IMG/VR virus record: IMGVR_UViG_3300026039_000012
Coordinates: 1 to 61,170 of that record
Direction: 5' to 3' (one strand)
Source: a virus
Lineage: Duplodnaviria > Caudoviricetes
Length of the DNA stretch: 61,170 nt
Made by a program: the position numbers and the translations under genes. Below are positions 1 through 58,624 of this stretch, one piece after another. Within the stretch, counting starts at the first letter, position 1. Each line of letters begins with the position of its first letter. Below the pieces are notes generated by a model. It was not told where the DNA came from. It saw only the letters and a list, made by a program, of their open reading frames with translations, and made no database searches.

Positions 1-538
1 TTCCTGTCGCAGTGGAGTTCCCCGCCCCGACAGCCAGCTTCCCGGTGTTCGTCGCGGTCAGGGTGCTGCTGTTCAGGAAGTCCAGGGGAGTGACACGGGT
101 CAGGGTGATCGACTCACCTGTGACCGTCGCATACATGATCTTGCTACCGATCGCACTGACCGTGAGGCTGAGTCGGTGGTCAGTGCTGGTCGCCCACGTC
201 GTGTACGACCCTCCGATGACGCTGGAGAGGTTGACCCCAGTCAGGACGTAGACGTCGAGACCGAGGCCGGGGTTCGTGGCAGCCGTGGCCGTCACGGTCA
301 TCGCAGCTGTGGGAGAGCTGATGACGGTGTAGTACGCGCGCATTGCGTACTGGTTGACGATCGACGTCCAGGTGTGGCCCTGGGAGTCGGTCATGTTGGT
401 GATGGACCCGCCGGACGTCCATACCGCAGCGAACGCAACGACGACGGAATGCAGAGGGGGTGTGAAGGATTCCGTCGTAACCGTCGTGGCGTTCGCCTTG
501 ACGTACGCCGGAGACGAGCTGTCGAACTCGATAGCCAT
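1..538 (-). CDS. N-terminal part (runs off the window start) of the long repeat fibre/whisker protein; diverged second copy of the domain at 60714-61170
   Basis: ATG at 538 with GGAGG upstream; reads MAIEFDSSSPAYVKANATTVTTESFTPPLHSVVVAFAAVWTSGG... without a stop to base 1; colinear with the N-terminus of ORF 58618..61170. Confidence 0.8.
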   Translation of the reverse strand, partial: MAIEFDSSSPAYVKANATTVTTESFTPPLHSVVVAFAAVWTSGGSITNMTDSQGHTWTSIVNQYAMRAYYTVISSPTAAMTVTATAATNPGLGLDVYVLTGVNLSSVIGGSYTTWATSTDHRLSLTVSAIGSKIMYATVTGESITLTRVTPLDFLNSSTLTATNTGKLAVGAGNSTATG

Positions 539-10679: not shown

Positions 10680-11039
10680 TCAGGCGTCCCAGTCGAGACG
10701 TGAGCTGACGTGTGCAGTGACGTAGTTGACGGTCAGCGCTGACGCACCCAGACGCCACGCTGTGAGACGCCGGAGGCGCCGTGCTGTGAAGTAGCTCGCG
10801 ACGACAGCGAACGTCAGATGGAACCCGACGCAGAACGGGCAGTCGAAGCCCTCTGAGTACTTCCCGAGACCAAGGCTGTCGAGTCGAGCGGATAGTGGGT
10901 CAGCGACCCACCACCGTCCGAGATCATCCACGGTGACGAGACGAGTCAGCCGGATCGACGCTCCGACGATCAGCGCGATGTCCACAAGGTTGTCCACAGC
11001 CTGTGGATATCCATGATCAGACGTCTTCCTCATCCTCAT
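10680..11039 (-). CDS. DUF1360-like membrane protein
   Basis: ASIRLTRLVTVDDL...CPFCVGFHL signature with hydrophobic helices; exact start uncertain. Confidence 0.7.
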   Translation of the reverse strand: MRMRKTSDHGYPQAVDNLVDIALIVGASIRLTRLVTVDDLGRWWVADPLSARLDSLGLGKYSEGFDCPFCVGFHLTFAVVASYFTARRLRRLTAWRLGASALTVNYVTAHVSSRLDWDA

Positions 11040-11478
11040 CCTCGCCCTCCTCGTCCATCTCTGGGCTGGTCACGGTGTACCCGTCGTAGGGGTTCGTGAC
11101 CGTCATCTGCCGAGCCGCTGGTCTGGTACGCCACCCACTGGGGTTGGCTCTGAACGCGCCGATGATCTGCGTGGTGGTTTTCACCCACTCGGAGCGCAGG
11201 TGACACGCCAGACACATCACAGAGTCGTGAGGACTGTCTGCGAGTACCCGGTAAACGCACTCCGGAGAGATGTGATCCGGGAGCATGTCGACCAGGTGGA
11301 CCAGGTCATCGTGGTCGTGAATCTCAGGCGATCCGATACAGACCAGAGCTCCGGAATCAGCCGTGACCTTCAGGTTTCGACCGCAGATCAGACACCGAAG
11401 TGGGTTGTCTCTGTCCAGGGCGTGGACGTAGTCGAGCAGCTTCCGCACCTGAGTTGTCGTCATCGTTGGATCGGTCAT
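11017..11478 (-). CDS. Hypothetical Cys-rich (CxxC) protein
   Basis: CLIC and CLAC pairs; ATGA overlap with the upstream gene. Confidence 0.55.
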   Translation of the reverse strand: MTDPTMTTTQVRKLLDYVHALDRDNPLRCLICGRNLKVTADSGALVCIGSPEIHDHDDLVHLVDMLPDHISPECVYRVLADSPHDSVMCLACHLRSEWVKTTTQIIGAFRANPSGWRTRPAARQMTVTNPYDGYTVTSPEMDEEGEDEDEEDV

Positions 11479-11951
11479 TGCACCTCCAGACAGATCAGGA
11501 AGACCCTCAGCGCTGCCAGGGCTCCGGCAGTCGCAAGGAACACCGGGAACAGGATCATCCGCTCGAACCAGCCGTCTGTGTGGATCCACAGCCAGTCAGG
11601 GACCGTCAGGCGACACCTGAGAATCTTCGACGGGATTCCCCGCCGGCCAGAGAAGATGTCGAGCAGGAGATGAGACCCCCACCCGACAGCCAGGGAGAAG
11701 GGGACCCAGTAGAGAGGAAGTCCTGGGAGAGCCATCACAGCGGCCAGGACTCCGAGAGCGAGCGGGATCTCCAGGAGATGAGTCTTCCCCCGGTGACCGA
11801 TGCCCAGTGAGAGATCCATGTCGGGACTGAACGACCCTCCTCCGGAGTAGTAGGCGAGAGCTGTACCCGCAGCAAGCGGAAGCGGGTCGGAGGGGGCGAC
11901 GGCCAGCCAGAGTGCGGCAGCCGCCAGGCGGTGCGTGGACTTCATACACAT
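11475..11951 (-). CDS. Membrane-bound metal-dependent hydrolase (YdjM/DUF457-like)
   Basis: THR...SPDMDL...HRGKTH...SHLLLDIFS..GIP motif set with hydrophobic segments. Confidence 0.78.
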   Translation of the reverse strand: MCMKSTHRLAAAALWLAVAPSDPLPLAAGTALAYYSGGGSFSPDMDLSLGIGHRGKTHLLEIPLALGVLAAVMALPGLPLYWVPFSLAVGWGSHLLLDIFSGRRGIPSKILRCRLTVPDWLWIHTDGWFERMILFPVFLATAGALAALRVFLICLEVQ

Positions 11952-11964
11952 GATCGTTCCCCGT

Positions 11965-12474
11965 TTACCTCGTGTACCACCAGGACCGAATCGGGCCGGT
12001 CGTCTTGCCCGTCGAAACCATGCGCTCAACGATCCGGCGCTCACGCCGATGGATCTGCTCCTCCCTTCGCTCACGCCTCTTGATCTTGCGAAGCCGGTTG
12101 AGAGCCTTCGACCGCCGGTTGCGCTGAGCCGTCTTCCGGTTGAGGGCATCGACGTCACGTGACCACCCGAACAACCAGTCATCGACTGTCTGACGACGCT
12201 TCACGGATCGGCGGTGGTCTGCCCATCTGTCTGCTGTGCTGCGCTCGCAGTCCGGCACCCAGCGCTGAAGCTTCACTCGGCCGTGGAGCACGACCGGCCG
12301 GTGATTCTTGGGCCGCAGCAGATCGAACACACGTCCGGCGGTCAAGCAGGCACGACACACAAGCTGCCCGTCCGTCGTCGGGATGATCGACGGGCTTCCG
12401 CAGACCGGACAGGAGTACGTCCCATTGGCGTCCACAACGACTTCGTAACGATTCGACCCCGTACGTCTCTTCAC
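11965..12474 (-). CDS. Zinc-ribbon and Arg-rich hypothetical protein
   Basis: CPVCGS...LVCRAC; GTG start with GAGGGAGG RBS just downstream of a promoter motif. Confidence 0.6.
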   Translation of the reverse strand: MKRRTGSNRYEVVVDANGTYSCPVCGSPSIIPTTDGQLVCRACLTAGRVFDLLRPKNHRPVVLHGRVKLQRWVPDCERSTADRWADHRRSVKRRQTVDDWLFGWSRDVDALNRKTAQRNRRSKALNRLRKIKRRERREEQIHRRERRIVERMVSTGKTTGPIRSWWYTR

Positions 12475-12496
12475 TGGGAATCCTCCCTCTCGCACT

Positions 12497-12522
12497 TATG
12501 TAGTCGTACTGTAACACACAAG
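12497..12522 (-). promoter_or_regulatory. Repeated promoter/operator, copy 1
   Basis: TGTAgtcgtacTGTAACACAC; the minus strand reads TGTG-T-TACAGT (extended -10). Confidence 0.75.
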
Positions 12523-12539
12523 CGGCTCGAAAGGACTAC

Positions 12540-14234
12540 TCAGCGCCCCGTTGTAGTGACTCGCCGGAGGCCTCTGGGGGAGTTGATCCGTGGGTCAGAC
12601 GGACGTGACCGGATCGGCCGTCCGGGAGCACCTGGGGAGGGGGAGGCAGACGATGCACCAGGAACCGTCAGAGAGGCAGAGCCACGCTCACGGAACTCGG
12701 TCAACGCCTGGGTGAGCGTGTCCACCTGGTCGTCGTTCTTCGCAGACGGGAAATCCCTCAGCTCTGGAAGGAGGTGCTGAAGTACCCAAGCGTTGCCGGG
12801 GTCGCGCGGGTGGGGTAGGTAGACATTCCCGCTCTGACACTCCGGTGTGACCGACCGCGCCCGCGCTTCCTTCGACGTCTTCGGGTTGATCGGCTTGAGT
12901 CCGGGGATCTCCTCGTGAAGCACGTCGAGAATCGCCGGACCGTTCGCCTTGTCCTCGATCAGTCGTTGATGGACGAACCTCCCGTGAGGTCCACCTCCGT
13001 GAGCCCAGGCTTTCATCTCGGAGATCGTCTGTGTGAACGACCAACGGCCACGTCGTTGAGCGATCAAGAACCGATTCGCCTTGACCTTCACCCAGCGCTG
13101 ACCAACGACCCAGTCGGAGGAGTCGAGCCCCTTGAAAGCACAGTCCCAGGAGTCGAGCCAACGCCCGCCGGCCAACGTGTCGGGGTCGAGGTAGACGACA
13201 CGACCGTCCTCGGTAGCTCGTGCCGGGTCTGTCGTCCAGAACCTCCACCAGTCAGTCGAGAAGATCGCACCCTGGGCCGGACTCGGCTTCTGCTGGTACA
13301 GCGCTGCCCAGACGTACTCACCAACGTTCCGCCGGACGTCCTCCAGCCTCTTGGTGGCGCTCTCGTCGTCTTCGTCAATGATCGGAGAGAGAAGCGGGGC
13401 ACCTACCTCACGACCGAGCTGGTCGCCCTCCTCTGCGACAGCGGGGAGCTCGACCACGGTCCAGTCAGCGGGATCGCCGTCGAACTCGGAGCTGAGCAGA
13501 CGGCCCACGATGTCGTCGTCGTGCCAGCGCGTGAGCGTGACGATGACGAGCGAGGGAGGCTCCAGGCGGGTCTGAGCGACAGAGCGCCACCAGTCCCAGA
13601 CAGCGTCACGAGCGATCAAGCTGTGAGCGCTCACTGCATCCTTGATCGGGTCGTCAATGCAGAGCACACGGCAGCCACGGCCTGTGAGGGACTCTCGGTA
13701 CGAGACAGCCATGAGCTTCCCCCGCTCGGTCGTCTCCCACTCCGAGACTGCCCCGGCGTCCGGAGCGACGCGCACACCTGGACCGAGAAGACCCGCTTCG
13801 ACCCAACGCCGGATCTGCCGTCCCCAGCTGGTGGCCAGCGACGGGTCGTGGCTGACGAGAGCAACCGACCACGACGGATGCAGCGCAAGGATCCACGCTG
13901 GGGTGAGCATCGTCAGCATCGTCGTCTTGCCCGACCTCGGAGGCATCTGAACGATGATCTTCCGGTCGATCCCGTTCTCGACGTCGTGCAAGGCATCGAC
14001 GATGACCGACGACAGATACTCCAGCTGGGGACGGACCCGGAACGGCTCACCGAGTGCGTACGCCTGTTCGATCGGAGAGGCCGGGAGCGTGGCCGACTCG
14101 ATCCCTCCCAGACTGTCGAGCAGAGCTGACGCTGCGAGCGGGGGCAGAGAGTCCACCAACTCTCCGATCTGAGCAGGGCTCAGCCCTGAGAGCATGTGCC
14201 GGATGTCGTCATCCGACCCGGTGAGAGCAGCCAC
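12540..14234 (-). CDS. terL: Terminase large subunit
   Basis: MPPRSGKT Walker A, LCIDDPIKD Walker B, TRWHDDD, ALYQQKP, DSWDCAFK, IEDKANG and FPSAKNDDQVD nuclease motifs; start uncertain (ORF extends to 14318). Confidence 0.93.
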   Translation of the reverse strand: MAALTGSDDDIRHMLSGLSPAQIGELVDSLPPLAASALLDSLGGIESATLPASPIEQAYALGEPFRVRPQLEYLSSVIVDALHDVENGIDRKIIVQMPPRSGKTTMLTMLTPAWILALHPSWSVALVSHDPSLATSWGRQIRRWVEAGLLGPGVRVAPDAGAVSEWETTERGKLMAVSYRESLTGRGCRVLCIDDPIKDAVSAHSLIARDAVWDWWRSVAQTRLEPPSLVIVTLTRWHDDDIVGRLLSSEFDGDPADWTVVELPAVAEEGDQLGREVGAPLLSPIIDEDDESATKRLEDVRRNVGEYVWAALYQQKPSPAQGAIFSTDWWRFWTTDPARATEDGRVVYLDPDTLAGGRWLDSWDCAFKGLDSSDWVVGQRWVKVKANRFLIAQRRGRWSFTQTISEMKAWAHGGGPHGRFVHQRLIEDKANGPAILDVLHEEIPGLKPINPKTSKEARARSVTPECQSGNVYLPHPRDPGNAWVLQHLLPELRDFPSAKNDDQVDTLTQALTEFRERGSASLTVPGASSASPSPGAPGRPIRSRPSDPRINSPRGLRRVTTTGR

Positions 14235-14238
14235 GACG

Positions 14239-15252
14239 TCAGGGGGTGTCGACCGTTGCTCCGGGACCCTGTAGACGTCCACGGAACCAGTCGATGGTCC
14301 AGCGCAGACCCTCGTCACGAGAGATGACCGGGTCCCAGCCGAGTACCTCGTTCGCTCGCCGGATGTCCGGCAGTCTGCGCCGAGGGTCCTGCTCGGATGC
14401 AGGAAGGTAGTCGATCTCCGGCACCGTGCCGGGGTGGATCATCTGCCAGATCTCCGCAGCAAGATCAATGATCTTGACCTCGTCGGGATTCCCGACGTTG
14501 ATCGGGTGCGTGATGGCGCAGGGGTAGTCAGCCATCGAGAGCAGCCCGCGCACCGTGTCCGAGATGAAACACAGCGACCGTGTCTGCTCGCCGTTGCCGT
14601 GCACACTCAGTGGCTCCTCGTCGAGAGCCTGCCGGATGAACGTCGAGACGACACGCCCATCGTCGGGAGACATCCCCGGACCGTACGAGTTGAATATCCG
14701 CGCGATCCTGGTGGAAACCCCGCAGCGCTCTCGGTAGAGCGTGACGGCTACCTCCGCCGAGCGCTTCCCCTCGACGTAGCAGGCCCGGTCACACATGCTG
14801 TCGACGTAGCCCGGATCGGTCTCGACCTGGGGGCAGCGGAGCGGGTCGCCGTATACCTCCGACGTGCTCGCCTGAAGGAACGTCGCGCGGTTGATCAGCG
14901 CCAGGTCCAGGAGATTCATCACGCCGACCGACGACGCCGCAAGGGTCCCGAGGGGGTTGAGCCGGTACTGCACTGGGGACGCCGGGCACGCCAGGTTGAT
15001 GATCTTGTCACACCGAGGGACCAGGCGGTCCAAGCCCGGATCGGTGATGTCGTGCTCGATCACCTGAATCCGGTCACTGAACTTCGAGTAGCGCAGAGCG
15101 ATGAGAGTCGTCTGTGACCCAGTGCTGTAGTTATCGACGGCAATGACTCGACTGCCCCGCGACAGAAGCTCCCAGCAAATACGTCCACCGAGGAATCCTG
15201 CTGCTCCGGTAACCAGAACAGTTTCCATCGTGTAGTCAGGTGCGTCACTCAC
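14239..15252 (-). CDS. uxs: UDP-glucuronate decarboxylase (UDP-xylose synthase)-like SDR
   Basis: TGAAGFLG Rossmann motif, NLACPASPVQY, ASTSEVYGDP, RACYVEGKRSAE (YxxxK), RIFNSYGP, DDGRVVSTFIRQAL, DPRRRLPDI. Confidence 0.88.
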   Translation of the reverse strand: MSDAPDYTMETVLVTGAAGFLGGRICWELLSRGSRVIAVDNYSTGSQTTLIALRYSKFSDRIQVIEHDITDPGLDRLVPRCDKIINLACPASPVQYRLNPLGTLAASSVGVMNLLDLALINRATFLQASTSEVYGDPLRCPQVETDPGYVDSMCDRACYVEGKRSAEVAVTLYRERCGVSTRIARIFNSYGPGMSPDDGRVVSTFIRQALDEEPLSVHGNGEQTRSLCFISDTVRGLLSMADYPCAITHPINVGNPDEVKIIDLAAEIWQMIHPGTVPEIDYLPASEQDPRRRLPDIRRANEVLGWDPVISRDEGLRWTIDWFRGRLQGPGATVDTP

Positions 15253-16219
15253 TGGTTTCTTCCTCCTCTGACCGGGACCTGGTCGACCAGTGGCCCTTGG
15301 TGATGTTCAACGAGATGGCCGGAGAAGGTGTGGCGTCCTCGAACGGCACACACAGACGGCGCTGCCATGGCCTGTAGTCCACATGATGGTGCGTCCGGTT
15401 GAACCGCGTGACGACACGTGCGACGTCCGGATGGGCTCTGACCAGGACCAACGCCTTACGGAGGTGAGCGTCAGGACCCGCGTAGATGGTCGTGGTGTTC
15501 CCTCCCTTAGTCCGCATCGTCGTCGTCTTATTGACGATTCCGAATTTAGATAGGATCGTATTCCATCCTGCTTTCATTAAATCTAATGAAAGAATGGTGT
15601 CCTCGTTGTATACACCACGCCATCTCTGTGGAAGATCAGTCCGTATAAGATTGCATGAATATACACGAGTATTGACAAGAGGCGCATTCCCGTTGTTCTT
15701 AGGATTACAGAACATCATGTAATCCAATCCGCCCATTGCGACATTCCTATAACGACGCATCAATTCTTCCAGGTACCGGAGCGGACCGGCATCGCTGGCG
15801 AGCACCTTCCGTGCACCGTAGAACCACCCGAGATCAAGGTGATTGTCGTCCAGACACCAGTAGTACGAGTGCCCCTCTGACAGCGCGTGATCCCACGCGA
15901 AGTTCCGAGCCGGACCTGAGCCGCGCGAGGCGTCAGGTGGAAGGTCCCAGCAGGGGTCGTAGCTGCGCTGATACTCCGGATCGAGGGTCAGCACACGTCC
16001 GTACCCACCGAGACCTGAGACCTGCTCCTCGTAGAGCGACGTTTCGTCGTGCTCGACCACGAGAGTGAAGGGCACACGGATAGCCGAGAGCAGCCGGACA
16101 GTGCCGGAGACCAGGTCAGAGCGCCCCTTGCTCTGGATGTAGATCGGGAACAGGGGCATGACCGGCGAGAGCTGTCGATCAGAGGGCACCCAGACGTCAG
16201 AGATCGGGAGCATCGTCAT
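15245..16219 (-). CDS. TET-associated-type (TAGT/GREB1-related) glycosyltransferase
   Basis: PIYIQSKGR, GSGPARNFAWDH, WCLDDN, NTRVYSCNLI, WRGVYNEDTILSL, TMRTKGGNT, HPDV, RFNRTHHHVDY motifs. Confidence 0.8.
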   Translation of the reverse strand: MTMLPISDVWVPSDRQLSPVMPLFPIYIQSKGRSDLVSGTVRLLSAIRVPFTLVVEHDETSLYEEQVSGLGGYGRVLTLDPEYQRSYDPCWDLPPDASRGSGPARNFAWDHALSEGHSYYWCLDDNHLDLGWFYGARKVLASDAGPLRYLEELMRRYRNVAMGGLDYMMFCNPKNNGNAPLVNTRVYSCNLIRTDLPQRWRGVYNEDTILSLDLMKAGWNTILSKFGIVNKTTTMRTKGGNTTTIYAGPDAHLRKALVLVRAHPDVARVVTRFNRTHHHVDYRPWQRRLCVPFEDATPSPAISLNITKGHWSTRSRSEEEETSE

Positions 16220-17000
16220 CGTCCCCGATCACTGTCTGAGCCTGCTGCGTTGCGTCCCGGCGCCGCTCCGGCTGCTCGCCGTACCAGTAGCTCTCGGTCC
16301 CGTTGCCGGCCCCCCTCCGCATCGGCGTACCGATGAACTCGACGAGACGCCGGTACGCCTCTTCGTCGGAGACACGCACGACGAGCGTCCGGTACGCACC
16401 CAGGTCACGGATCGGGTGTCCTTCGAGCGGAGGTGGGGGAAGCGCATCACGCGCGAGACCAGGCATCCTCGGGTTGCTGAGGTCGTCCGGACCATCGTCA
16501 CCGGTCGGCACCCAGGCTGTGCTGAGGTACTCCTCTGCCTCGGTGAGTCGGCGCAGAGCCTCACGATCCTCATCCGTGAACCCGAGAGGGTAGTCGTCGT
16601 CCATCTCCTGAAGCTCATCGAGCAGGCTGAGCAGGGTCTCGTCAACCCACCCGCCCAGCTCCGTCGTCCTGTTCAGGGCGATGAGAGCAGCGTGAGCCTC
16701 CCGGTCCGACTTCGACGACCATCCGGTGACAACCGGAACGGTCCAGTACCCCTCTTCGTCGATGGACGCGCCGTTCGGGAGGGGTCCCTTGTTCTCGCAG
16801 ATCGAGAGCAGAGCCTTCCGTCGTCCGTGCCCTGAGACCAGGAACCCCGTCCTGCCGTCGATGACGAACGGCTCGATGATCGAGAAGTGCCGGATCGACT
16901 CCTCGATGGCCTTCTCGTCGTGGGCCTTCGGATTGCACGGGTCTTCCTTGAGGTCCGACAACCGCATGTACTCGATGCTGTGCGACTCGTACAGCTTCAC
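16197..17000 (-). CDS. ParB/Srx-like N-terminal domain protein (DNA-modification-cassette type)
   Basis: LSDLKEDPCNPKAHD...IEESIRHF..IEPFVID..TGFLVSGHGRRKAL...IALNRTTELGGW; no C-terminal HTH and no parA. Confidence 0.8.
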   Translation of the reverse strand: MKLYESHSIEYMRLSDLKEDPCNPKAHDEKAIEESIRHFSIIEPFVIDGRTGFLVSGHGRRKALLSICENKGPLPNGASIDEEGYWTVPVVTGWSSKSDREAHAALIALNRTTELGGWVDETLLSLLDELQEMDDDYPLGFTDEDREALRRLTEAEEYLSTAWVPTGDDGPDDLSNPRMPGLARDALPPPPLEGHPIRDLGAYRTLVVRVSDEEAYRRLVEFIGTPMRRGAGNGTESYWYGEQPERRRDATQQAQTVIGDDDDAPDL

Positions 17001-17011
17001 TGAGGATCTCC

Positions 17012-17470
17012 TCACTGCTGATCTCCCTGCTCATCGTCGTCGTCGTCCAGCGGGTCAGACGGGGCGTCGGCCACCCCTGCGTCACGTCCGTCGTTGTCCG
17101 CCTGGATCTCCAGGAGACGCTGAAAGAGCAGCTCACGCGCGTCCGCTGCCTCGATCTTCGTGACCCGACCCCAGCCAGCGCGGTCCAGGAGGCTGTTCGC
17201 CGCTGTCTGCTTGTCCCTCGACGTGTTCGACCTGTCGGCCATCTCCCGTGCCAGGGTGGCAATAGCAGGCTCTACCAGCGCTGCGAGCCTGAGCTTCGCT
17301 GCTCGTTTCGCTGCCGACGCCGCACCGCCGTGAGCCCTGCACACGTTCTGCCCACGCATCGCCGGGGCCATGCACGGCTCGCCCGTCTTACTCCTGTGTG
17401 CCGTGCACAACCGCCGGTTGAACTTGTCACGGCGGGGTTCGATGGGTGTCGAGACCCCATGAGGTTCCAT
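17012..17470 (-). CDS. terS: Terminase small subunit (HGGxS-motif protein)
   Basis: CTAHRSKTGEPC...VCRAHGGAA, then a helical region with AANSLLDRAG; upstream of the terL cluster. Confidence 0.65.
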   Translation of the reverse strand: MEPHGVSTPIEPRRDKFNRRLCTAHRSKTGEPCMAPAMRGQNVCRAHGGAASAAKRAAKLRLAALVEPAIATLAREMADRSNTSRDKQTAANSLLDRAGWGRVTKIEAADARELLFQRLLEIQADNDGRDAGVADAPSDPLDDDDDEQGDQQ

Positions 17471-17557
17471 GATCAACTTCCTCCCGCGTGGACCAGAGTC
17501 GCATCGTCTCATGATCCACGCAGGGTCAGCGTCAGCTGTGGAGGGGTTGAGCTGTAG

Positions 17558-18286
17558 TTACGGGGCCGTCTCTTTCAGGTCTCGCATGAGGTCATGTCCG
17601 GCTTTAGTCAACTTGATCTTGTTAAGGTCCTTCCCTTCGTCAGTCGGCCAGAGGACGACCAGCCCCTGCTCTGACAGCGCCATAGCCGCTGCCCATGCCT
17701 CGGAGGACTCAGGGGAGAGCAGAGACGACCCCGCCCCACGGATGTAGTCGATCCAGAGATTCCAGAGCAGAGACCTCTCAGCTGAGGTGAAACCATCCTC
17801 CGACTCGGAGTCGCTGTTCTCCTCCGGGATACCCCCGGCCGACAAGAGAGCTGAGCCCTGGATCGTCAGAGTGGCCCGCACCCAGTTCTCCACCGGGCCG
17901 CTGTCCCAGGTCACAAGACCGAGAGCAGTCAGCGCCTTCAGGTGGTCCGTCGCCTCCTCCGTGATCGACCACGTCCGATGCCCCTCGCGTGCCCTGCTCT
18001 GAAGTGTCTCCAGGATGAGCCGCTGCTCCAGGGGGAGAGTGTCGACGTCGATCGTCTCTGGCGCCTCCTGAGGTTTCTCCTCCGTCTGAGACCGAATCTC
18101 AGTGATCCTGTCGGCAGCGGCCCGAACCACCTCCCCCGCGAACTCGCCCATGAGGTCTTCGAGATCTATTTTCAGTGTCGACAGCTTGGTGTTGATCAGC
18201 TCTCCGATCCTGAACGAAATCTCAGCCATCGATTTCCTGAGATCTCTCAGCTCTTGCTCCGAATCGAACACCGGATTCCCCGTCAT
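17558..18286 (-). CDS. Hypothetical protein with coiled coil and two winged-helix-like repeats
   Basis: Internal repeat: LKALTALGLVTW...ATLTIQGSALL and AMALSEQGLVVLW...IKLTKAGHDLM. Confidence 0.6.
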   Translation of the reverse strand: MTGNPVFDSEQELRDLRKSMAEISFRIGELINTKLSTLKIDLEDLMGEFAGEVVRAAADRITEIRSQTEEKPQEAPETIDVDTLPLEQRLILETLQSRAREGHRTWSITEEATDHLKALTALGLVTWDSGPVENWVRATLTIQGSALLSAGGIPEENSDSESEDGFTSAERSLLWNLWIDYIRGAGSSLLSPESSEAWAAAMALSEQGLVVLWPTDEGKDLNKIKLTKAGHDLMRDLKETAP

Positions 18287-18597
18287 TGGTCTGTTCCTCT
18301 CGTTTTCAGGTGGGTGAGTACAGCGGCCACGTGGTAGCAGCGGGAGTTACCTCCGCCGGACTTCTGGCCGTGAGCACACGAGCAGGAGACCCAGCGCTGC
18401 TCGGGTGCCTCGATGAGTGTCACGCGGTAGGCAGTCGTCTGCTCCGGCCGGAGGGACCCGACCCACCACACGTTCGGCGCTGTGGCGTCAGGAGTGACCA
18501 GGCAACGGGCCGAAGCCCTCCGAGCCTTGCCCAGTACCGAAGTACTGAACTCGGCCAGGAGGGCTTCAGCCCAGACCTGAGAGTCAGGCAGGGACAC
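18283..18597 (-). CDS. SWIM zinc-finger protein
   Basis: YRVTL...VSCSCAHG...CYHVAAV (CxC...CxH). Confidence 0.7.
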   Translation of the reverse strand: MSLPDSQVWAEALLAEFSTSVLGKARRASARCLVTPDATAPNVWWVGSLRPEQTTAYRVTLIEAPEQRWVSCSCAHGQKSGGGNSRCYHVAAVLTHLKTRGTDQ

Positions 18598-19594
18598 CGG
18601 CGATCTCCTTCACGAGTTTCGTTGCGGTACTGACCAGGTCGCTCCGGTCCAGGTAGGTCCGCTTGAACCTGCTCTCTGCCTGGTGTGCACGCCGACCGTG
18701 GTTCAGGTACTCCAGGCTGGCCTGCACCGTGCCCCACGCCGTGTCTTCGATCCCCTCGCACGTAGGGCTGGCGAGGAACCCGCGAACTGCGGCGCGTGCC
18801 TGCTCGACGTTGTTGGCCACGCGGTCGGAGCAGGTGCCAGGGGCCGGCATCGGGATGAACCGGGAGAGGAAGATCTCCCTGTCCGCCTCGTCGAACTTGA
18901 CCGTGACCAAGTGGTTGCCGAGTGTCTGATACGCGGAGATGCTGTCGCGCCATCCGGCGAGAGCCTTCTGGGCCTGCTCGATCCTGTCGTGCACGTTCTT
19001 CGTGTGAGAGAACGTGAACTCGGTGCCCCACTCCTTGGCGAACATGTCGGCCATCCGCGCCGTGTTGGCGCAGACGATCCTCTCGGCGAGAGCCTGCCCG
19101 CGGAAGCTGGCAGAGCCGTCGTGAGCGTTCTGGAGGGCGAAGAACGGGATCACAGACCCGTTCGGGTCGCCGATGATCTGGATGGGCTCGGCGAGACGCA
19201 GGAGCAGCCACACTCGGCACCCGCCGGCCAGACTTCCGGCCGTCTCGTACTTCACGGCGCCCTTGTCCACGCCCTGAATCGCCTCAGCGATGTCGTACAT
19301 GGTCGAGTTGTTCACCGTGACGTAGCCGGGGCTCACCGGACCGAGCTCGAACCCGTCGTCCGACCGGACGTTCAGCTTCGCGGTGTCGCTGATCTCGAAG
19401 CGCTCGACCAGGTTGCCGTTCTCGTCGATCTCGACCACCTTGCGGTAGAGATCCTCGGTGACCGGCTCCCACGGGTGGGCGATCGCCTGAGCCTCTTCGC
19501 GGGTGGGGTACTCGGGAAGAACAGTCCCGAGGCCGTGCCACATGGGCTCACGGTAAGCAAAGACTCCGTCGCGCTCGGTGATCTCGTGTGCCAT
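18584..19594 (-). CDS. DUF932 family phage/plasmid protein
   Basis: REPMWHGLG, LGPVSPGYVTVNN, YETAGSLAGG.RVW, NAHDGS, RIVCANT, HTKN and TAWG...EY motifs. Confidence 0.85.
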   Translation of the reverse strand: MAHEITERDGVFAYREPMWHGLGTVLPEYPTREEAQAIAHPWEPVTEDLYRKVVEIDENGNLVERFEISDTAKLNVRSDDGFELGPVSPGYVTVNNSTMYDIAEAIQGVDKGAVKYETAGSLAGGCRVWLLLRLAEPIQIIGDPNGSVIPFFALQNAHDGSASFRGQALAERIVCANTARMADMFAKEWGTEFTFSHTKNVHDRIEQAQKALAGWRDSISAYQTLGNHLVTVKFDEADREIFLSRFIPMPAPGTCSDRVANNVEQARAAVRGFLASPTCEGIEDTAWGTVQASLEYLNHGRRAHQAESRFKRTYLDRSDLVSTATKLVKEIAGVPA

Positions 19595-19630
19595 GGTGTG
19601 CTCCTTCGATCAGCGGGGTCGTTCCCCCTT

Positions 19631-19655
19631 GTGTATGTCTACTGTAACACACAAC
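19631..19655 (-). promoter_or_regulatory. Repeated promoter/operator, copy 2
   Basis: TGTAtgtctacTGTAACACAC upstream of the DUF932 gene. Confidence 0.75.
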
Positions 19656-19682
19656 GGGGAAATAATCCTCTCGCTAGAACTT

Positions 19683-20012
19683 TTATTCTGAGGAATTTTT
19701 CAGAGCCCGCTCGATCACGCTCAGCGCTTCGGTGTGAGACAGCACGACCTCGGCAGTACACCCGGCGTCCCTCAGCTGGACTATCTGCGTCAGCTGGAGT
19801 CTCGTCGCGCGGTTCCGCGCTGCCTGCTCTGACTCACCCGCCCGCCGGCACTTCACCTCCAGGCCGACGAGACGACCGTCCACGGCCACCAGAAGATCCG
19901 GAACTCCGCTCTCCTGCTGGGGACTTCCGACGACCTTGAACACCCAGGCCAGCGGGTACCTGTCGATGATCGCTCTCTTGATCCGGTTGACCAGAACGCT
20001 CTCGTTGCTCAC
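19683..20012 (-). CDS. VRR-NUC domain nuclease / Holliday junction resolvase
   Basis: ESVLVNRI...GVPDLL...LEVK...TRLQL; GTGA overlap start. Confidence 0.82.
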   Translation of the reverse strand: MSNESVLVNRIKRAIIDRYPLAWVFKVVGSPQQESGVPDLLVAVDGRLVGLEVKCRRAGESEQAARNRATRLQLTQIVQLRDAGCTAEVVLSHTEALSVIERALKNSSE

Positions 20013-20308
20013 GGCGTCTCGACCTTCCGAACGATGTGGAGACCTGACGACCACTCCGGTCCGCGCACCCCAGGTATTGCTCTGTGCTCCTCTACCCACG
20101 GCTCAATCTCGTACGTCCCCCCAGCCAACTCACTGAACTCGTCAGTCTCCAGGGCACCATCTGCCACGAACTGATCAACGTCACAGCCGTAACAGATAGC
20201 CGTGAACCCGTCCCCGTAGCTCACCAGCTCTTCCGGACATCCCTCGTGGATCACCTCCAGCTCTGTGAGTTCCCCGTCCTTGGTCACTTCCAGCAGGTGC
20301 CGTCCCAT
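20009..20308 (-). CDS. Hypothetical protein
   Basis: ATG after a purine-rich RBS; coupled to the downstream gene. Confidence 0.6.
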   Translation of the reverse strand: MGRHLLEVTKDGELTELEVIHEGCPEELVSYGDGFTAICYGCDVDQFVADGALETDEFSELAGGTYEIEPWVEEHRAIPGVRGPEWSSGLHIVRKVETP

Positions 20309-42540: not shown

Positions 42541-42900
42541 GTGTCTCCGATTGAGGTCGTTTTCGGGTTCCTGGGGATCATGGTCACCCAGGTCTGCGGA
42601 GTCTTGGGACTCTGGCTACAGAGCCGAGGAAATCACTCGACGCAGACCACGAAACTGGACGAGCTGGCAGCACAATTCCAGCGACACATGGCCCGATTCC
42701 ACCAGGTGAGAGGCAATCATGGCGAAGGTGAAGACACCGACACCTACGAAGATCATTACGACCCTCGGATTCACGACGACGGAGGCATTCCAGGCCGCGT
42801 GGAATCTCGGTCCAGCGCTGACGGTAGACGGGAAGATCGGCCCGGCAACCAAGGCGGCGGCACTCACCTCCTGGGGGAGGCACCTCCACAACCGGCCTGA
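42541..42900 (+). CDS. Possible single-TM lysis-associated membrane protein
   Basis: GGGGGA RBS; N-terminal TM helix then a coiled segment; the 3' half overlaps the endolysin out of frame. Confidence 0.45.
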   Translation: MSPIEVVFGFLGIMVTQVCGVLGLWLQSRGNHSTQTTKLDELAAQFQRHMARFHQVRGNHGEGEDTDTYEDHYDPRIHDDGGIPGRVESRSSADGRREDRPGNQGGGTHLLGEAPPQPA

Positions 42901-43276
42901 CCTCTCGGAGCACTTCTCTACGAGCGACTTTCGGTGCCACTGCGGAGGGAAGTACGCAGGGTGTCAGGGAGTCCTCGTACAGCGTGACCTGCTGATCGGT
43001 CTCGAAGTTCTCCGGACTCGGGCCTACCCGAGAGGCCTGGTCATCGTCTCCGGCTACCGCTGCGAGAGGCACAACGCGAAGGTCAACGGAGCAGACGGCT
43101 CGAAGCACGTCCTCGGTCAGGCCGCTGACATCAAAGGAACCGTCCCGATCGCGACCATGAAGAGCTTCCAGCTCTTCGGCGGGATCGGGTACAAGCGCTC
43201 AACTGGGAAGGTGACTCACGTCGACTGCCGTCGTGTCTCTCACACCAACCCCACCGTGTGGATCTACAACAGCTGA
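42719..43276 (+). CDS. Endolysin: peptidoglycan-binding helix plus peptidase M15A
   Basis: FQ...LTVDGKIGPATK PG-binding motif; SEHFS..DFRCHCGG, IVSGYRC..HNAKVNGA.GSKHVLGQAADI, THVDCR. Confidence 0.88.
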   Translation: MAKVKTPTPTKIITTLGFTTTEAFQAAWNLGPALTVDGKIGPATKAAALTSWGRHLHNRPDLSEHFSTSDFRCHCGGKYAGCQGVLVQRDLLIGLEVLRTRAYPRGLVIVSGYRCERHNAKVNGADGSKHVLGQAADIKGTVPIATMKSFQLFGGIGYKRSTGKVTHVDCRRVSHTNPTVWIYNS

Positions 43277-43778: not shown

Positions 43779-43802
43779 GTGTGTTACACAAGACGTACAT
43801 AC
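43779..43802 (+). promoter_or_regulatory. Repeated promoter/operator, copy 12, the only inverted copy, upstream of the spd/traB operon
   Basis: GTGTGTTACAcaagacgTACA is the reverse complement of TGTA-N7-TGTAACACAC; its -10 reads TACACA. Confidence 0.72.
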
Positions 43803-43904
43803 ACACACGTTGACTCGCCGTGGCTCTGGCCAGCCCCGGCGACCTGGGCGGGGATACGCCACTGGCCTGCTCGATCCGGCGACTCCTCGCGAACTGGAGT
43901 CGTC

Positions 43905-44771
43905 ATGATCATTCAGCAGAAGTTCCCCTGGTACATGGCTCTCGTCGGAGCAGTCGGAGCAGCCGGTCTCGTGACCGGTATCGGCACGCTCGCCGAAGCG
44001 TTCATCCCCCTGTTCGGAGCGTTCTGGGCCTGGGGTGCAGCTATCTTGCTCGACCTCCTGGCGCTCGCTCTGACCGTGTGGGCCATTCAGGAGATCCGTG
44101 ACGGAATCCCTGCGGGCCTTGTCCGGTCGTCAGCTCACGGCTGCATTGGGGTGAGCGTCGCCGTGCAGGCTGTCACTGCTGCGCAGGGACTCAGCAACAC
44201 CGCGGGCGGCTGGACCTCCGCGGGCATGCACACGATCCCCCCGCTGGCTCTCGGTCTGGCCCTAGAGCTGATCTACCAGCACTACGCGAAGGAGTGGCGT
44301 GCCAAGACAGCTCCGATCGTGGCAGCCGAGACCATGCGGGAGCAGGCTGCTCGTGCCGCTGTCGGAGTGCCCGTGAAGATTTCACGTGTGCAGCGTGCCG
44401 TCATCAGCGCTGCCAAGGCCGGGGTCGTCGACATGCGTGCTCTCACCCGCCAGATCTCGGATGACGACCTGCTCCAATCCCCGGCAGTTCGGGCTCTCCA
44501 CGCGGTGGTCGACCCCGAGGCCGCAGCGGCTCTGACGGTCAGAGCCAATGCTCAGAAGGCTCTGAGCACCCGTGAGACTGCCGGGTTCCGTCTGCTCCCT
44601 GTCTCAAGTACGGATGACGCTCCAGACGAACTCACGACGCAAGAACGCCGTGAGCGTGTCTGGGAGCTGACCGACAAGGGGAAGGCCACCCGAGAGATCG
44701 CTCGGATTCTCAGATGCTCGCCCAGCACGGTGAGCACTGACCAGCGTGCACGTCGAAAGGAGGTTGGCTGA
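43905..44771 (+). CDS. SpdB2/DUF2637-like 4-TM membrane protein with C-terminal HTH
   Basis: Four TM helices with AW...LLD and MHTIPPLAL..ALEL motifs; C-terminal RRERVWEL..KGKATREIARILRCSPSTVS HTH. Confidence 0.72.
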   Translation: MIIQQKFPWYMALVGAVGAAGLVTGIGTLAEAFIPLFGAFWAWGAAILLDLLALALTVWAIQEIRDGIPAGLVRSSAHGCIGVSVAVQAVTAAQGLSNTAGGWTSAGMHTIPPLALGLALELIYQHYAKEWRAKTAPIVAAETMREQAARAAVGVPVKISRVQRAVISAAKAGVVDMRALTRQISDDDLLQSPAVRALHAVVDPEAAAALTVRANAQKALSTRETAGFRLLPVSSTDDAPDELTTQERRERVWELTDKGKATREIARILRCSPSTVSTDQRARRKEVG

Positions 44772-58294: not shown

Positions 58295-58624
58295 CTACGG
58301 AGTGGCGGGGACTTCGAGGTTCGGAGTGACCTTGATCAGCTCCAGTGACTCTGTCGGAGCTGTGGTCTGAATCCCGTCCTTCTCCAACTTGATCACTCCA
58401 CTGTAGGTGCCGGGGGCGAGAGTCCCCGTCAGCCCATGGGTGAGCACTCCCAGCGCGGGGTCCCCGACAACCGTCACGTCCAGCTCGGTGACGACCCCTG
58501 CGCGGGAGCTGACCAGCATCGTGGCTGTGACTCCGGTGAGCGAGACAGGATCGCCTGTCACTCGATCCGTCAACGTGAACGTCACGTCGTGCGTGTCGCC
58601 CTCTTTCACGGTCAGCATCAGCAC
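58295..58624 (-). CDS. Small BppU-like beta-sandwich structural protein
   Basis: VKEGDT...TLTD..TG.PVSLTG.TA...G.Y.G...T.P pattern. Confidence 0.6.
   Translation of the reverse strand: MLMLTVKEGDTHDVTFTLTDRVTGDPVSLTGVTATMLVSSRAGVVTELDVTVVGDPALGVLTHGLTGTLAPGTYSGVIKLEKDGIQTTAPTESLELIKVTPNLEVPATP

Follow-up and report, generated by a model that had tools for sequence, protein, structure and literature searches.

To our knowledge, phage DNA glycosylation always begins at a hydroxymethyl (or hydroxy) pyrimidine that either a dioxygenase or a thymidylate-synthase-like enzyme has made, and every biochemically characterised TAGT glycosyltransferase requires a hydroxymethyl-pyrimidine or a sugar already on the DNA. 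The TAGT family, with its shared GT-A fold, includes the T2/T6 beta-glucosyl-HMC-alpha-glucosyltransferase and the GT-A enzymes of phage C5-MT/5mYOX(TET) systems (PMC8256090, 10.1101/2023.12.21.572611, PMC13216743). As far as the published accounts describe them, the characterised members of PF20691 all act on DNA (PMC13216743, PMC13390438, 10.1101/2023.12.21.572611). Solitary TAGTs occur in 288 of 753 phage genomes in one survey, which leaves their function open (PMC13216743), and approximately 65% of glycosyltransferase contigs, those lacking 5mYOX/ThyS, were set aside by Pyle et al. (10.1101/2023.12.21.572611).

Three other groups of systems are relevant here. According to the account of ParB-dependent thymine dioxygenase pathways by O'Toole et al. 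2026, phage T-dioxygenases are activated on dsDNA by cognate ParB-like proteins that have no DNA-binding domain (PMC13229309). The ParB-CTPase fold is also found joined to an N6_N4_Mtase domain in ParB-DNA methyltransferase fusions (phrog_498; PMC12704722). Finally, pentose-modified phage DNA has been reported as arabinosyl-cytosine in RB69/Mosigvirus and as a cytosine pentose in Shewanella phage Thanatos, whose TH1_063 makes UDP-xylose in vitro (PMC6024577, PMC13390438, PMC12838424).

The stretch of DNA analysed here is a window of 61,170 nucleotides from an uncultured actinobacterial phage and carries a cassette with a TAGT. We found no described TAGT-UXS or ParB-TAGT system in the open-access literature searched. 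Our best reading, which we put forward tentatively, is that the cassette could well encode a ParB-tethered enzyme that xylosylates phage DNA.

A three-gene cassette directly upstream of terL

Overlapping genes on the minus strand encode, in order of transcription, a ParB-like protein (272 aa; 16197..17015), a TAGT-family GT-A glycosyltransferase (324 aa; 15245..16219) and a predicted UDP-glucuronate decarboxylase (UDP-xylose synthase, UXS; 337 aa; 14239..15252), and they lie directly upstream of terL on the same strand (12540..14234, with an uncertain start at 14318, 14282, 14234 or 14195). The ParB-like and TAGT genes overlap by 23 nt, or by 17 nt if TAGT starts at its second ATG (16213), as in the 322-aa database protein P0001, and the TAGT and UXS genes overlap by 8 nt. 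No promoter-like or terminator-like sites were found across 12200-20300. The terL assignment is given by Terminase_6N/6C in Pfam and by phrog_38 at 1.1e-83. Its product is 56% identical to TerL of Microbacterium phages Margaery and Hendrix, and by this gene the nearest cultured relatives are Microbacterium phages such as Margaery.

An initial annotation had the cassette splitting terS from terL. The three genes are indeed coupled and precede terL, but the terS label proved to be a guess from position. The gene in question (166 aa; 17012..17512, minus strand), which overlaps the ParB-like gene by 4 nt, matches the HGGxSTG domain NF041373 at 27.2 bits, under the cut-off of 29, and its PHROG match, phrog_3678, is of "unknown function". 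All 20 of the 20 records with homologues are Microbacterium phages, in which the gene under each match is annotated as hypothetical and lies near the right genome end. For the 242-aa protein encoded upstream of this gene, the ESM Atlas offered no dioxygenase, and its matches, to MarR-like winged-helix proteins, were weak (TM 0.37).

The record had likewise been described as an apparently complete genome. CheckV rates it 98% complete and linear; ORFs are cut at both ends and cannot be joined in frame, so a small piece within the tail genes is missing. Circular closure was rejected for the same reason. Pfam scans took in 57 of its 77 ORF calls, and approximately 20 ORFs of the window have no Pfam or PHROG match.

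Profile, PHROG and structure matches bear out the family originally assigned to each cassette protein. TAGT scores 91 bits with PF20691 (1.3e-25; cut-off 27.5), with residues 24-239 covering profile positions 1-204 of 205, and matches phrog_842 at 7.7e-31. The PF20691 domain is present in 120 of 120 TAGT homologues among the matches listed. Across 36 sequences R103, D122-D123-N124 and E204-D205 are invariant. The R, DD and ED catalytic blocks are common to known TAGTs and the window enzyme, whereas the R...DDD...EDY/F blocks reported for 5mYOX-linked GT-A enzymes (Pyle et al., 10.1101/2023.12.21.572611) are replaced in this clade by DDN and EDT, with N124 and T206 at the third positions, a difference that counts against our best reading.

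In searches for close relatives, megablast of the cassette region against GenBank phages gave no match, tblastn with TAGT gave 23 records with none from an actinophage, and a single-protein scan of IMG/VR found no close relative. A metagenome scan yielded one 1.7-kb contig (L086) that carries a TAGT 68% identical to that of the window and the start of a UXS gene.

A PDB sequence search with TAGT gave no significant match. Its AF2 model (pLDDT 89.5, pTM 0.89) matches the GT-A enzymes ColGalT1, LH3 and TarP in Foldseek with probability 1.0. Since the solved structures that the model resembles most are glycosyltransferases acting on proteins and teichoic acid, the GT-A fold does not in itself point to DNA.

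The ParB-like partner of TAGT

The ParB-like protein matches phrog_620 at 6e-24 and phrog_498, the family of ParB-methyltransferase fusions, at 6.3e-24. It has no Pfam match at E<=0.01, ParBc included, and no significant match in a PDB sequence search. Its AF2 model has a mean pLDDT of 79.4, with residues 10-170 mostly above 90, and Foldseek returns ParB-N, Noc and ParB-CDP structures with probability 1.0 (5k5d, 6sdk, 7nfu, 7bm8). To judge from this model, the N-terminal part (approximately residues 10-160) is a ParB-CTPase-fold domain and putative nucleotide-binding domain (NBD).

Canonical ParB proteins carry the arginine-rich nucleotide-binding motif GERR. The family consensus at this site is AGHGR, in which G62 is invariant and R65 aligns to an Arg of Spo0J GERRF. 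The protein does not appear to be a canonical partition ParB of a ParABS system: Pfam detects no HTH or ParB C-domain family in it, and no ParA-type gene is present among the 57 ORFs scanned.

Beyond the NBD, residues ~165-258 (16242..16523, minus strand) form a C-terminal domain (CTD) that stands out as a conserved block in an alignment of 71 ParB-like partners. Its consensus, "EW.GMPEF ... VHF ... W.P", belongs to no Pfam family. In the ESM Atlas its nearest clusters are unnamed viral hypothetical proteins of 78-92 aa, an observation that serves as a lead only. The CTD profile matches the N-terminal extension of TAGT in Aeromonas phage 65 and in Vibrio phages Kuja and 1.076.O. These three are among the 18 of 158 surveyed TAGT loci in which CTD and TAGT share one ORF, an arrangement that amounts to a Rosetta-stone fusion.

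This survey of TAGT contexts drew its 158 loci from four collections. Upstream of TAGT, 98 loci encode both NBD and CTD, 37 encode a CTD but no NBD, 7 have an NBD alone and 11 lack both domains; in the remaining 5 the upstream stretch is too short to judge. Of the 80 loci from IMG/VR, 70 carry a ParB-like homologue, which is the ORF next upstream of TAGT in 61 and the second ORF in that direction in 6. No third conserved gene accompanies the pair within 6 kb. ParB-TAGT is therefore a widespread module, in which TAGT is constantly accompanied by the ParB-like protein or, more precisely, by its unclassified CTD. A prediction of the complex between TAGT and the CTD (residues 165-258) gave a median score of 0.23 against a mark of 0.32, a result that speaks neither for nor against binding.

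A parallel to this arrangement lies in Margaery, where genes 1-3, in the slot before terL, encode ParB (gp1), a Tet_JBP-like dioxygenase (29 bits) and a P-loop kinase3 (1.9e-20). The NBD of the window protein is 55% identical to Margaery gp1 over 122 residues (1e-44). As in the pathways of O'Toole et al. (PMC13229309), an NBD-bearing ParB without a recognisable DNA-binding domain adjoins a DNA-modifying enzyme just upstream of terL. However, that enzyme is a dioxygenase in Margaery and a glycosyltransferase here, and the C-terminal domains are unrelated. The CTD was not found in Margaery gp1, so the NBD is the shared part and the C-terminus is specific to the partner. The phrog_498 fusions resemble the window protein in joining the same ParB N-domain to a DNA-modifying activity, but they do so in one polypeptide with a methyltransferase (PMC12704722), whereas ParB and glycosyltransferase are separate here.

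These relationships favour DNA over virion proteins as the acceptor, because of the ParB homology and the slot held in common with the Margaery dioxygenase pathway. That TAGT instead attaches xylose to a phage protein, be it of the virion, of the packaging machinery or another, with the ParB-like protein as a scaffold unrelated to DNA modification, seems improbable to us. Such a target would suit the position of the cassette among packaging and head genes, which recurs in Vibrio phage 1.076.O, where the relative lies between portal and head-morphogenesis genes. It would also suit the hydroxylysine glycosyltransferases among the best solved structural matches, and DNA offers no known candidate acceptor. 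It is harder to reconcile with a ParB-CTPase-fold partner whose N-domain is 55% identical to that of a protein encoded beside a DNA dioxygenase and a kinase, or with the occurrence of CTD-fused relatives in large phages that encode TS-family genes. Nor is any Ser, Thr or Tyr of the CTD close enough to invariant to act as a fixed acceptor.

Supply of the sugar donor

The third cassette protein matches human UXS1 structures (4gll, 2b69) at 1.4e-74 and 254 bits over residues 10-328, far above other SDR classes, of which the next best scores 102 bits, AXS 89 and ArnA 56. No NCBIfam equivalog reaches its cut-off. The blocks ASTSEVYGDP, ACYVEGKR and RIFNSYGPGM align to identical blocks of hUXS1, and within them STSEVYGDP, Y..GKR and RIFN..GP are invariant in four phage UXS sequences. 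We take the catalytic residues to be Thr/Ser-Glu, Tyr-x3-Lys and the RIFN arginine. This SDR is thus predicted to be a UDP-glucuronate decarboxylase, or UDP-xylose synthase. No UGDH was found in the record, so the UDP-glucuronate substrate must come from the host.

Genomic context supports the earlier proposal that UXS feeds the TAGT donor pool. The UXS gene directly follows TAGT in four further loci of the 158 (L034, L057, L061 and L086), and in L061 a UGDH-family gene (PF00984, 2.7e-16) lies between the two. From the opposite direction, among the 80 viral UXS loci that most resemble that of the window (the best 80 of at least 477), 18 contain a TAGT-profile match. Of these matches 14 are strong, 1 is cut by a contig end and 3 are weak. 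We infer from this linkage that UDP-xylose is the donor for TAGT.

The glycosyltransferase sequences carry no visible mark of this pairing. When 9 groups of UXS-linked TAGTs were compared with 145 unlinked ones, no discriminating column was found, so donor specificity is not visible from sequence; the best column, Ser versus Pro in a G(S/P)G block, stood at 8 of 9 UXS-linked groups and at 37% of the unlinked enzymes. In a FastTree leaf order covering 164 TAGT domains, which is not a formal clade test and for which loci L161-L240 had been chosen for having UXS, the UXS-linked enzymes form 9 separate runs.

A xylose donor would set the window enzyme apart from described TAGTs. Published TAGT products carry a hexose, HexNAc or heptose (PMC8256090, 10.1101/2023.12.21.572611, PMC13216743). 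RB69, Mosigvirus and Thanatos also encode a pentose nucleotide-sugar supply, there with a DNA-directed transferase, but the donor is made by other enzymes (a pyrophosphorylase in Thanatos), the transferases are different and the acceptor comes from a TS-family enzyme at the nucleotide stage (PMC6024577, PMC13390438, PMC12838424). The window instead has UXS, and has no TS-family gene.

Phage UXS genes also occur apart from TAGT, and 62 of the same best 80 loci are without a TAGT match. Many relatives lie in prophages, and the best structural matches include TarP, which transfers GlcNAc to teichoic acid and is itself encoded by prophages. These observations would fit an enzyme that decorates a polymer of the host wall, or a metabolite, to exclude superinfecting phages or to take over the host; UXS would then be an auxiliary metabolic gene. 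We consider such an envelope or small-molecule target very improbable, since the constant ParB/CTD pairing and the site beside the terminase gene do not fit an envelope enzyme, and no further polysaccharide-synthesis gene was found among the 57 ORFs scanned in the window.

Priming enzymes and the acceptor

Known TAGTs are likewise phage-encoded and, in published surveys, often lie near ParB, terminase and sugar epimerase genes (PMC8256090, 10.1101/2023.12.21.572611, PMC13216743). Neither a 5mYOX nor a C5-methyltransferase nor a TS-type hydroxymethylase, the enzymes that would supply the acceptor, was found in the window genome, where the partner of TAGT is a ParB with a dedicated CTD. Six-frame searches of the record at E<=1 for five families, Tet_JBP (PF12851), Thymidylat_synt (PF00303), ThyX (PF02511), N6_N4_Mtase (PF01555) and C5 DNA_methylase (PF00145), were all empty, in agreement with the initial annotation, which had recognised no dioxygenase, methyltransferase or thymidylate-synthase-like gene. 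None of these priming families turned up when 57 of the 77 ORF calls were scanned with Pfam, and the Margaery dioxygenase as a protein query gave no match at E<=10. Compared with a Margaery-type pathway, the window lacks a 5hmU-forming step, a kinase and a cognate 5mYOX beside ParB.

The lack of TET does not set this particular phage apart. It is common to all 69 related records searched, 13 of them near-complete, which contain no Tet_JBP above cut-off and no TS-family gene. In the 50 records with the closest TAGTs, both Tet_JBP above cut-off and PF00303 were found in 0 of 50, a set in which 10 genomes reach 90% completeness or more; in 22 UXS-TAGT records both were again found in 0 of 22, three of them complete genomes that end in terminal repeats. 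As positive controls, the TS-family search recovered the genes of Kuja and Aeromonas phage 65, and the Tet_JBP search detected the Margaery dioxygenase at 30.7 bits, which is below the Pfam cut-off.

This last value bears on a conventional explanation, in which a divergent dioxygenase or hydroxylase, encoded by an unannotated gene or in the missing piece of the record, makes 5hmU, 5hmC or 5-hydroxy-C and TAGT xylosylates that base. The sub-threshold enzyme occupies Margaery's syntenic slot, PF12851 is reported to miss 5-17% of phage 5mYOX contigs (PMC13229309), the window has its ORFs without any family match, and the record is 98% rather than 100% complete. We nonetheless regard a hidden partner of this kind as unlikely given the empty family and dioxygenase searches, the finding of TET or TS in 0 of 13 near-complete related genomes and the lack of a third conserved gene beside ParB-TAGT. 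The sole weak Tet_JBP match in the 50 records (14.8 bits, in G001) is a prolyl-hydroxylase-type 2OG-FeII_Oxy_3 protein located elsewhere on its contig, outside the TAGT locus.

Under the preferred reading of a ParB-tethered DNA xylosyltransferase, the cassette would be a late-expressed DNA-glycosylation module of three parts. UXS would convert host UDP-glucuronate to UDP-xylose, the GT-A enzyme would take this as donor, and the ParB-like protein would serve as its DNA-directed helper. The CTPase-fold N-domain of this helper might engage double-stranded DNA, as in the ParBs that activate phage thymine dioxygenases, with the CTD acting as a TAGT-specific adaptor. DNA is favoured as the target because the characterised PF20691 members all act on DNA, because the NBD resembles that of Margaery gp1 and because a further match links it to the N-domain found in phage ParB-methyltransferase fusions. 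Most likely this would be the phage's own replicated DNA, modified around the time of packaging; gene position is the basis for suggesting that the reaction may be coupled to packaging. The acceptor would not be a hydroxymethyl-pyrimidine from any recognisable phage enzyme.

A large TAGT clade that lacks such an enzyme and is instead bound up with a ParB-like protein by way of a putative adaptor domain dedicated to it suggests an unrecognised DNA acceptor or priming enzyme. The cassette may mark DNA with xylose in a manner not yet described. If so, this new DNA modification would bear on restriction and CRISPR evasion and on sequencing artefacts, and the helper role of the ParB fold, newly found for dioxygenases, would extend to glycosyltransferases. 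UXS-bearing cassettes would be expected to cause a mass shift that is both specific and easy to detect, that of a pentose (+132 Da; +132.04 Da).

A bolder proposal, for which we see some chance but which we would not expect to hold, is that ParB-CTD-TAGT glycosylates DNA unprimed by hydroxymethylation, here with UXS-supplied xylose, the acceptor being a canonical base or other native DNA group reached via a ParB-fold clamp. This would constitute a new class of post-replicative modification, shared by phages and prophages of different bacterial phyla and numbering in the hundreds, in which the donor sugar would vary with the neighbouring accessory gene (UXS, UGDH plus UXS, a cytidylyltransferase or other SDRs). 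Other sugar-nucleotide genes are present at other TAGT loci, with CTP_transf_like in 10 and an epimerase-type SDR cluster in 8.

A gene block leading into terL

The virus record is linear and 98% complete as estimated by CheckV. A GC content of ~63%, a WhiB gene and a terL that shares 54-56% identity with its counterparts in Microbacterium phages, Margaery and Hendrix among them, mark it as an actinobacterial siphophage-like virus that has not been cultured. Rather than a closed circle, the record is a fragment that is almost complete: both of its ends (window 1-538 and 58618-61170) interrupt minus-strand ORFs, and end-to-end joining yields no single open frame, so that a small piece must be missing inside the tail genes.

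Five minus-strand genes are arranged head to tail with overlaps. These encode an HGGxSTG-domain protein (17012-17512), a ParB-like protein (16197-17015), the TAGT glycosyltransferase (15245-16219), a short-chain dehydrogenase/reductase (SDR; 14239-15252) and terL (from ~14234 down to 12540), and no promoter-like or terminator-like sites were found within the block. The initial annotation placed the three central genes between terS and terL. The genes and their positions hold, but the terS label for the HGGxSTG protein is unsupported: no family backs it, and its relatives in Microbacterium phages are annotated as hypothetical.

Two genes lie upstream of the cassette: one for a 242-aa protein (17558-18286; phrog_2590) whose weak structural matches are tandem winged-helix and MarR-like, and one for a DUF932 protein (18584-19594). 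One or the other might be the packaging subunit that actually recognises DNA. The genome is otherwise read on the minus strand except for one sizeable plus-strand block (43779-46924), which encodes a protein of 330 aa with a LuxR/GerE-like HTH at its C-terminus, and one of 717 aa that weakly matches FtsK/SpoIIIE. A Peptidase_M15 gene is present at 42719-43276.

All three cassette proteins can be assigned. The TAGT scores 91 bits against PF20691 (cut-off 27.5), and its model adopts a confident GT-A fold (pLDDT 89.5) with GT-A matches by Foldseek. The SDR matches human UXS1 over its full length (1.4e-74, 254 bits, versus 102 bits for the next SDR class) with its catalytic blocks aligned, and by these matches it is a UDP-glucuronate decarboxylase (UXS). 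The ParB-like protein has no match in a Pfam search; in PHROG it hits ParB-like families as well as the N-domain of fusions between ParB and methyltransferase, and Foldseek pairs its model with ParB-N, Noc and ParB-CDP structures at a probability of 1.0.

A widespread ParB-TAGT unit

The window cassette is one case of a widespread unit. Our searches identified 327 TAGT relatives in the protein database (E<=1e-5), at least 588 TAGT loci in IMG/VR and 74 in species genomes, the latter from Actinomycetota, Pseudomonadota, Bacteroidota, Acidobacteriota, Bacillota, Cyanobacteria, CPR bacteria and one Methanosarcinales MAG. Neighbour clustering of 80 IMG/VR loci places a ParB-like homologue in 70 of them, directly upstream of TAGT in 61. 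The ParB-TAGT pair is also present in L091-L093, which are prophages of the enterobacteria Pantoea, Erwinia and Pseudescherichia.

Alignment of the ParB-like partners reveals two blocks, a nucleotide-binding N-domain (NBD; consensus AGHGR and IADN) and a C-terminal domain (CTD; consensus EW.GMPEF ... VHF ... W.P). Profiles of both were run over 158 TAGT loci. The stretch upstream of TAGT carries both domains in 98 loci, the CTD without the NBD in 37, the NBD only in 7 and neither in 11, and is too short to score in the remaining 5. Moreover, CTD and TAGT share one ORF in 18 of the 158 loci, with fused proteins of 389-452 aa in Aeromonas phage 65, Vibrio phage 1.076.O and, as two tandem copies, Kuja. 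The CTD therefore occurs in three ways: it ends a ParB-like protein, stands by itself or is joined to TAGT in one chain. Its presence upstream in most loci and its fusions make it the constant companion of the window's TAGT clade. Structure prediction of a complex between TAGT and the ParB CTD yielded no verdict either way. In the main texts of the open-access papers searched, neither the ParB-CTD-TAGT unit nor a pairing of TAGT with UXS was found to be described.

Several members have additional features. The tandem paralogues of Kuja (L083, 3233-5921; 452 and 446 aa), a member of the Ackermannviridae with a TS-family gene as well, adjoin a DNA end protector gene. Two TAGT homologues of 535-546 aa (P0036 and P0074) carry a fused Methyltransf_21 domain (PF05050, FkbM-type), which suggests that some TAGT members handle methylated sugars.

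Predicted sugar donor

UXS is recurrently linked to TAGT. Of the 80 viral UXS loci with the greatest similarity to that of the window, 18 have an adjoining TAGT-profile match (14 strong, 1 cut by the contig end and 3 weak). UXS directly follows TAGT in L034, L057 and L086, and follows it after one intervening gene in L061, an AT-rich viral contig. The intervening gene (10852-11604) encodes a 250-aa UDP-glucose/GDP-mannose dehydrogenase (UGDH)-family protein with a central-domain match of 2.7e-16, a weak N-domain match and none to a C-terminal UDP-binding domain. If active, the protein would count as a minimal UGDH of phage origin, and together with UXS it would provide a two-step route from UDP-glucose.

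In other loci among the 80 from IMG/VR the same place is taken by a cytidylyltransferase (10) or other SDRs (8), and the gene next to TAGT seems to set the donor. One such cytidylyltransferase (L054, 9004-9420; 138 aa, PF01467, 1.1e-13) lies beside ParB-TAGT, and genes of this kind hint that the phages concerned use a donor linked to CDP or ADP. For the window, UDP-xylose is the favoured donor judging from gene content. No UGDH was found in the window, so UDP-glucuronate must be supplied by the host. The sugar may end as arabinose if the host has a UDP-xylose 4-epimerase, a route raised in the RB69 paper.

In three further loci (L193, 205-1852; L194, 53-1700; L224, 4384-6001), a strong ParB N-domain match (137 bits) that lacks the CTD, a TAGT-like ORF of high divergence (37-42 bits) and UXS stand in this order. 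The arrangement may represent a second, more distant ParB-GT-UXS design.

Predicted acceptor and target

The claim that the window lacks a recognisable TET, methylase or TS-like partner was borne out. Six-frame searches of the whole record with Tet_JBP, Thymidylat_synt, ThyX, N6_N4_Mtase and C5 DNA_methylase gave no match at E<=1, and the Margaery dioxygenase used as a protein query gave none at E<=10. A Pfam scan of 57 of the 77 ORF calls detected no priming enzyme, and an HNH endonuclease was all that a PHROG scan contributed for ten ORFs lacking annotation. The approach is sound for phage records, since the Tet_JBP search recovers the Margaery dioxygenase (30.7 bits) and the TS search is likewise positive for Kuja and Aeromonas phage 65.

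A priming enzyme could nonetheless be hidden among the ~20 window ORFs that match no family, and PF12851 is reported to miss 5-17% of phage 5mYOX contigs (PMC13229309). We consider this unlikely. Neither Tet_JBP above cut-off nor a TS-family gene was found in the 50 records with the closest TAGTs, including ten genomes at least 90% complete, or in 22 UXS-TAGT records, including three complete genomes with terminal repeats; these sets overlap by three and comprise 69 distinct records and 13 near-complete genomes. TS-family genes are, however, encoded by Kuja and Aeromonas phage 65, in which the CTD is fused to TAGT. Separately, a prolyl-hydroxylase-type oxygenase of 333 aa (2OG-FeII_Oxy_3) is encoded on one TAGT-bearing viral contig (L081, 1169-2170; record G001), outside the TAGT locus retrieved from it.

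Three lines of comparison favour DNA as the target. Every characterised PF20691 enzyme in the accounts cited here decorates DNA (PMC13216743, PMC13390438, 10.1101/2023.12.21.572611). The N-domain of the window ParB-like protein is the same as that fused to DNA methyltransferases in many phages (PMC12704722). Also, in Margaery (L085, NC_073366.1, 1-3810) the slot before terL is occupied by gp1, annotated as a ParB-like nuclease domain protein, gp2, an annotated oxidoreductase that is Tet_JBP-like (29-31 bits), and gp3, an annotated hypothetical protein that matches P-loop nucleotide kinase3 (1.9e-20). The first 122 residues of gp1 are 55% identical to the window ParB (1e-44) and similarity ends near residue 135, in keeping with an NBD profile match (8.5e-25) and no CTD profile match. 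These genes look like a ParB-dependent thymine-dioxygenase pathway, and a ParB-like protein has been described to activate its cognate thymine dioxygenase on double-stranded DNA (O'Toole et al., PMC13229309).

Because the slot and the kind of N-domain are common to both phages, the window looks like a modular swap, in which the ParB N-domain would be kept while the C-terminal adaptor and the DNA-modifying enzyme are exchanged. Given these ties to DNA, glycosylation of proteins is an improbable use of the cassette, and an envelope or metabolite target is more improbable still.

Solitary TAGTs of undefined function are reported in 288 of 753 phage genomes (PMC13216743). Pyle et al. (10.1101/2023.12.21.572611) find neither 5mYOX nor ThyS beside the GT in ~65% of GT contigs, and they note co-occurring genes for ParB-like proteins, terminases and epimerases. 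Pentose-modified phage DNA is known from RB69/Mosigvirus phages and Thanatos (PMC6024577, PMC13390438, PMC12838424), in which a TS-family enzyme makes the acceptor, whereas no such gene was found in the window.

Our leading interpretation, to which we give somewhat less than an even chance, is a DNA xylosyltransferase module, tethered through ParB, with an acceptor that no known route supplies. The earlier proposal of xylosylation of an unknown acceptor is thus partly supported by the UXS identity, the recurrent TAGT-UXS linkage and the searches for priming enzymes, while acceptor and donor use remain predicted. The cassette would be a variant of known phage DNA-glycosylation systems, with a predicted nucleoside mass shift of +132 Da that is directly testable. 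Margaery, which is cultured and easily grown, may itself carry hypermodified thymidine, given the resemblance of its first three genes to a thymine-dioxygenase pathway.
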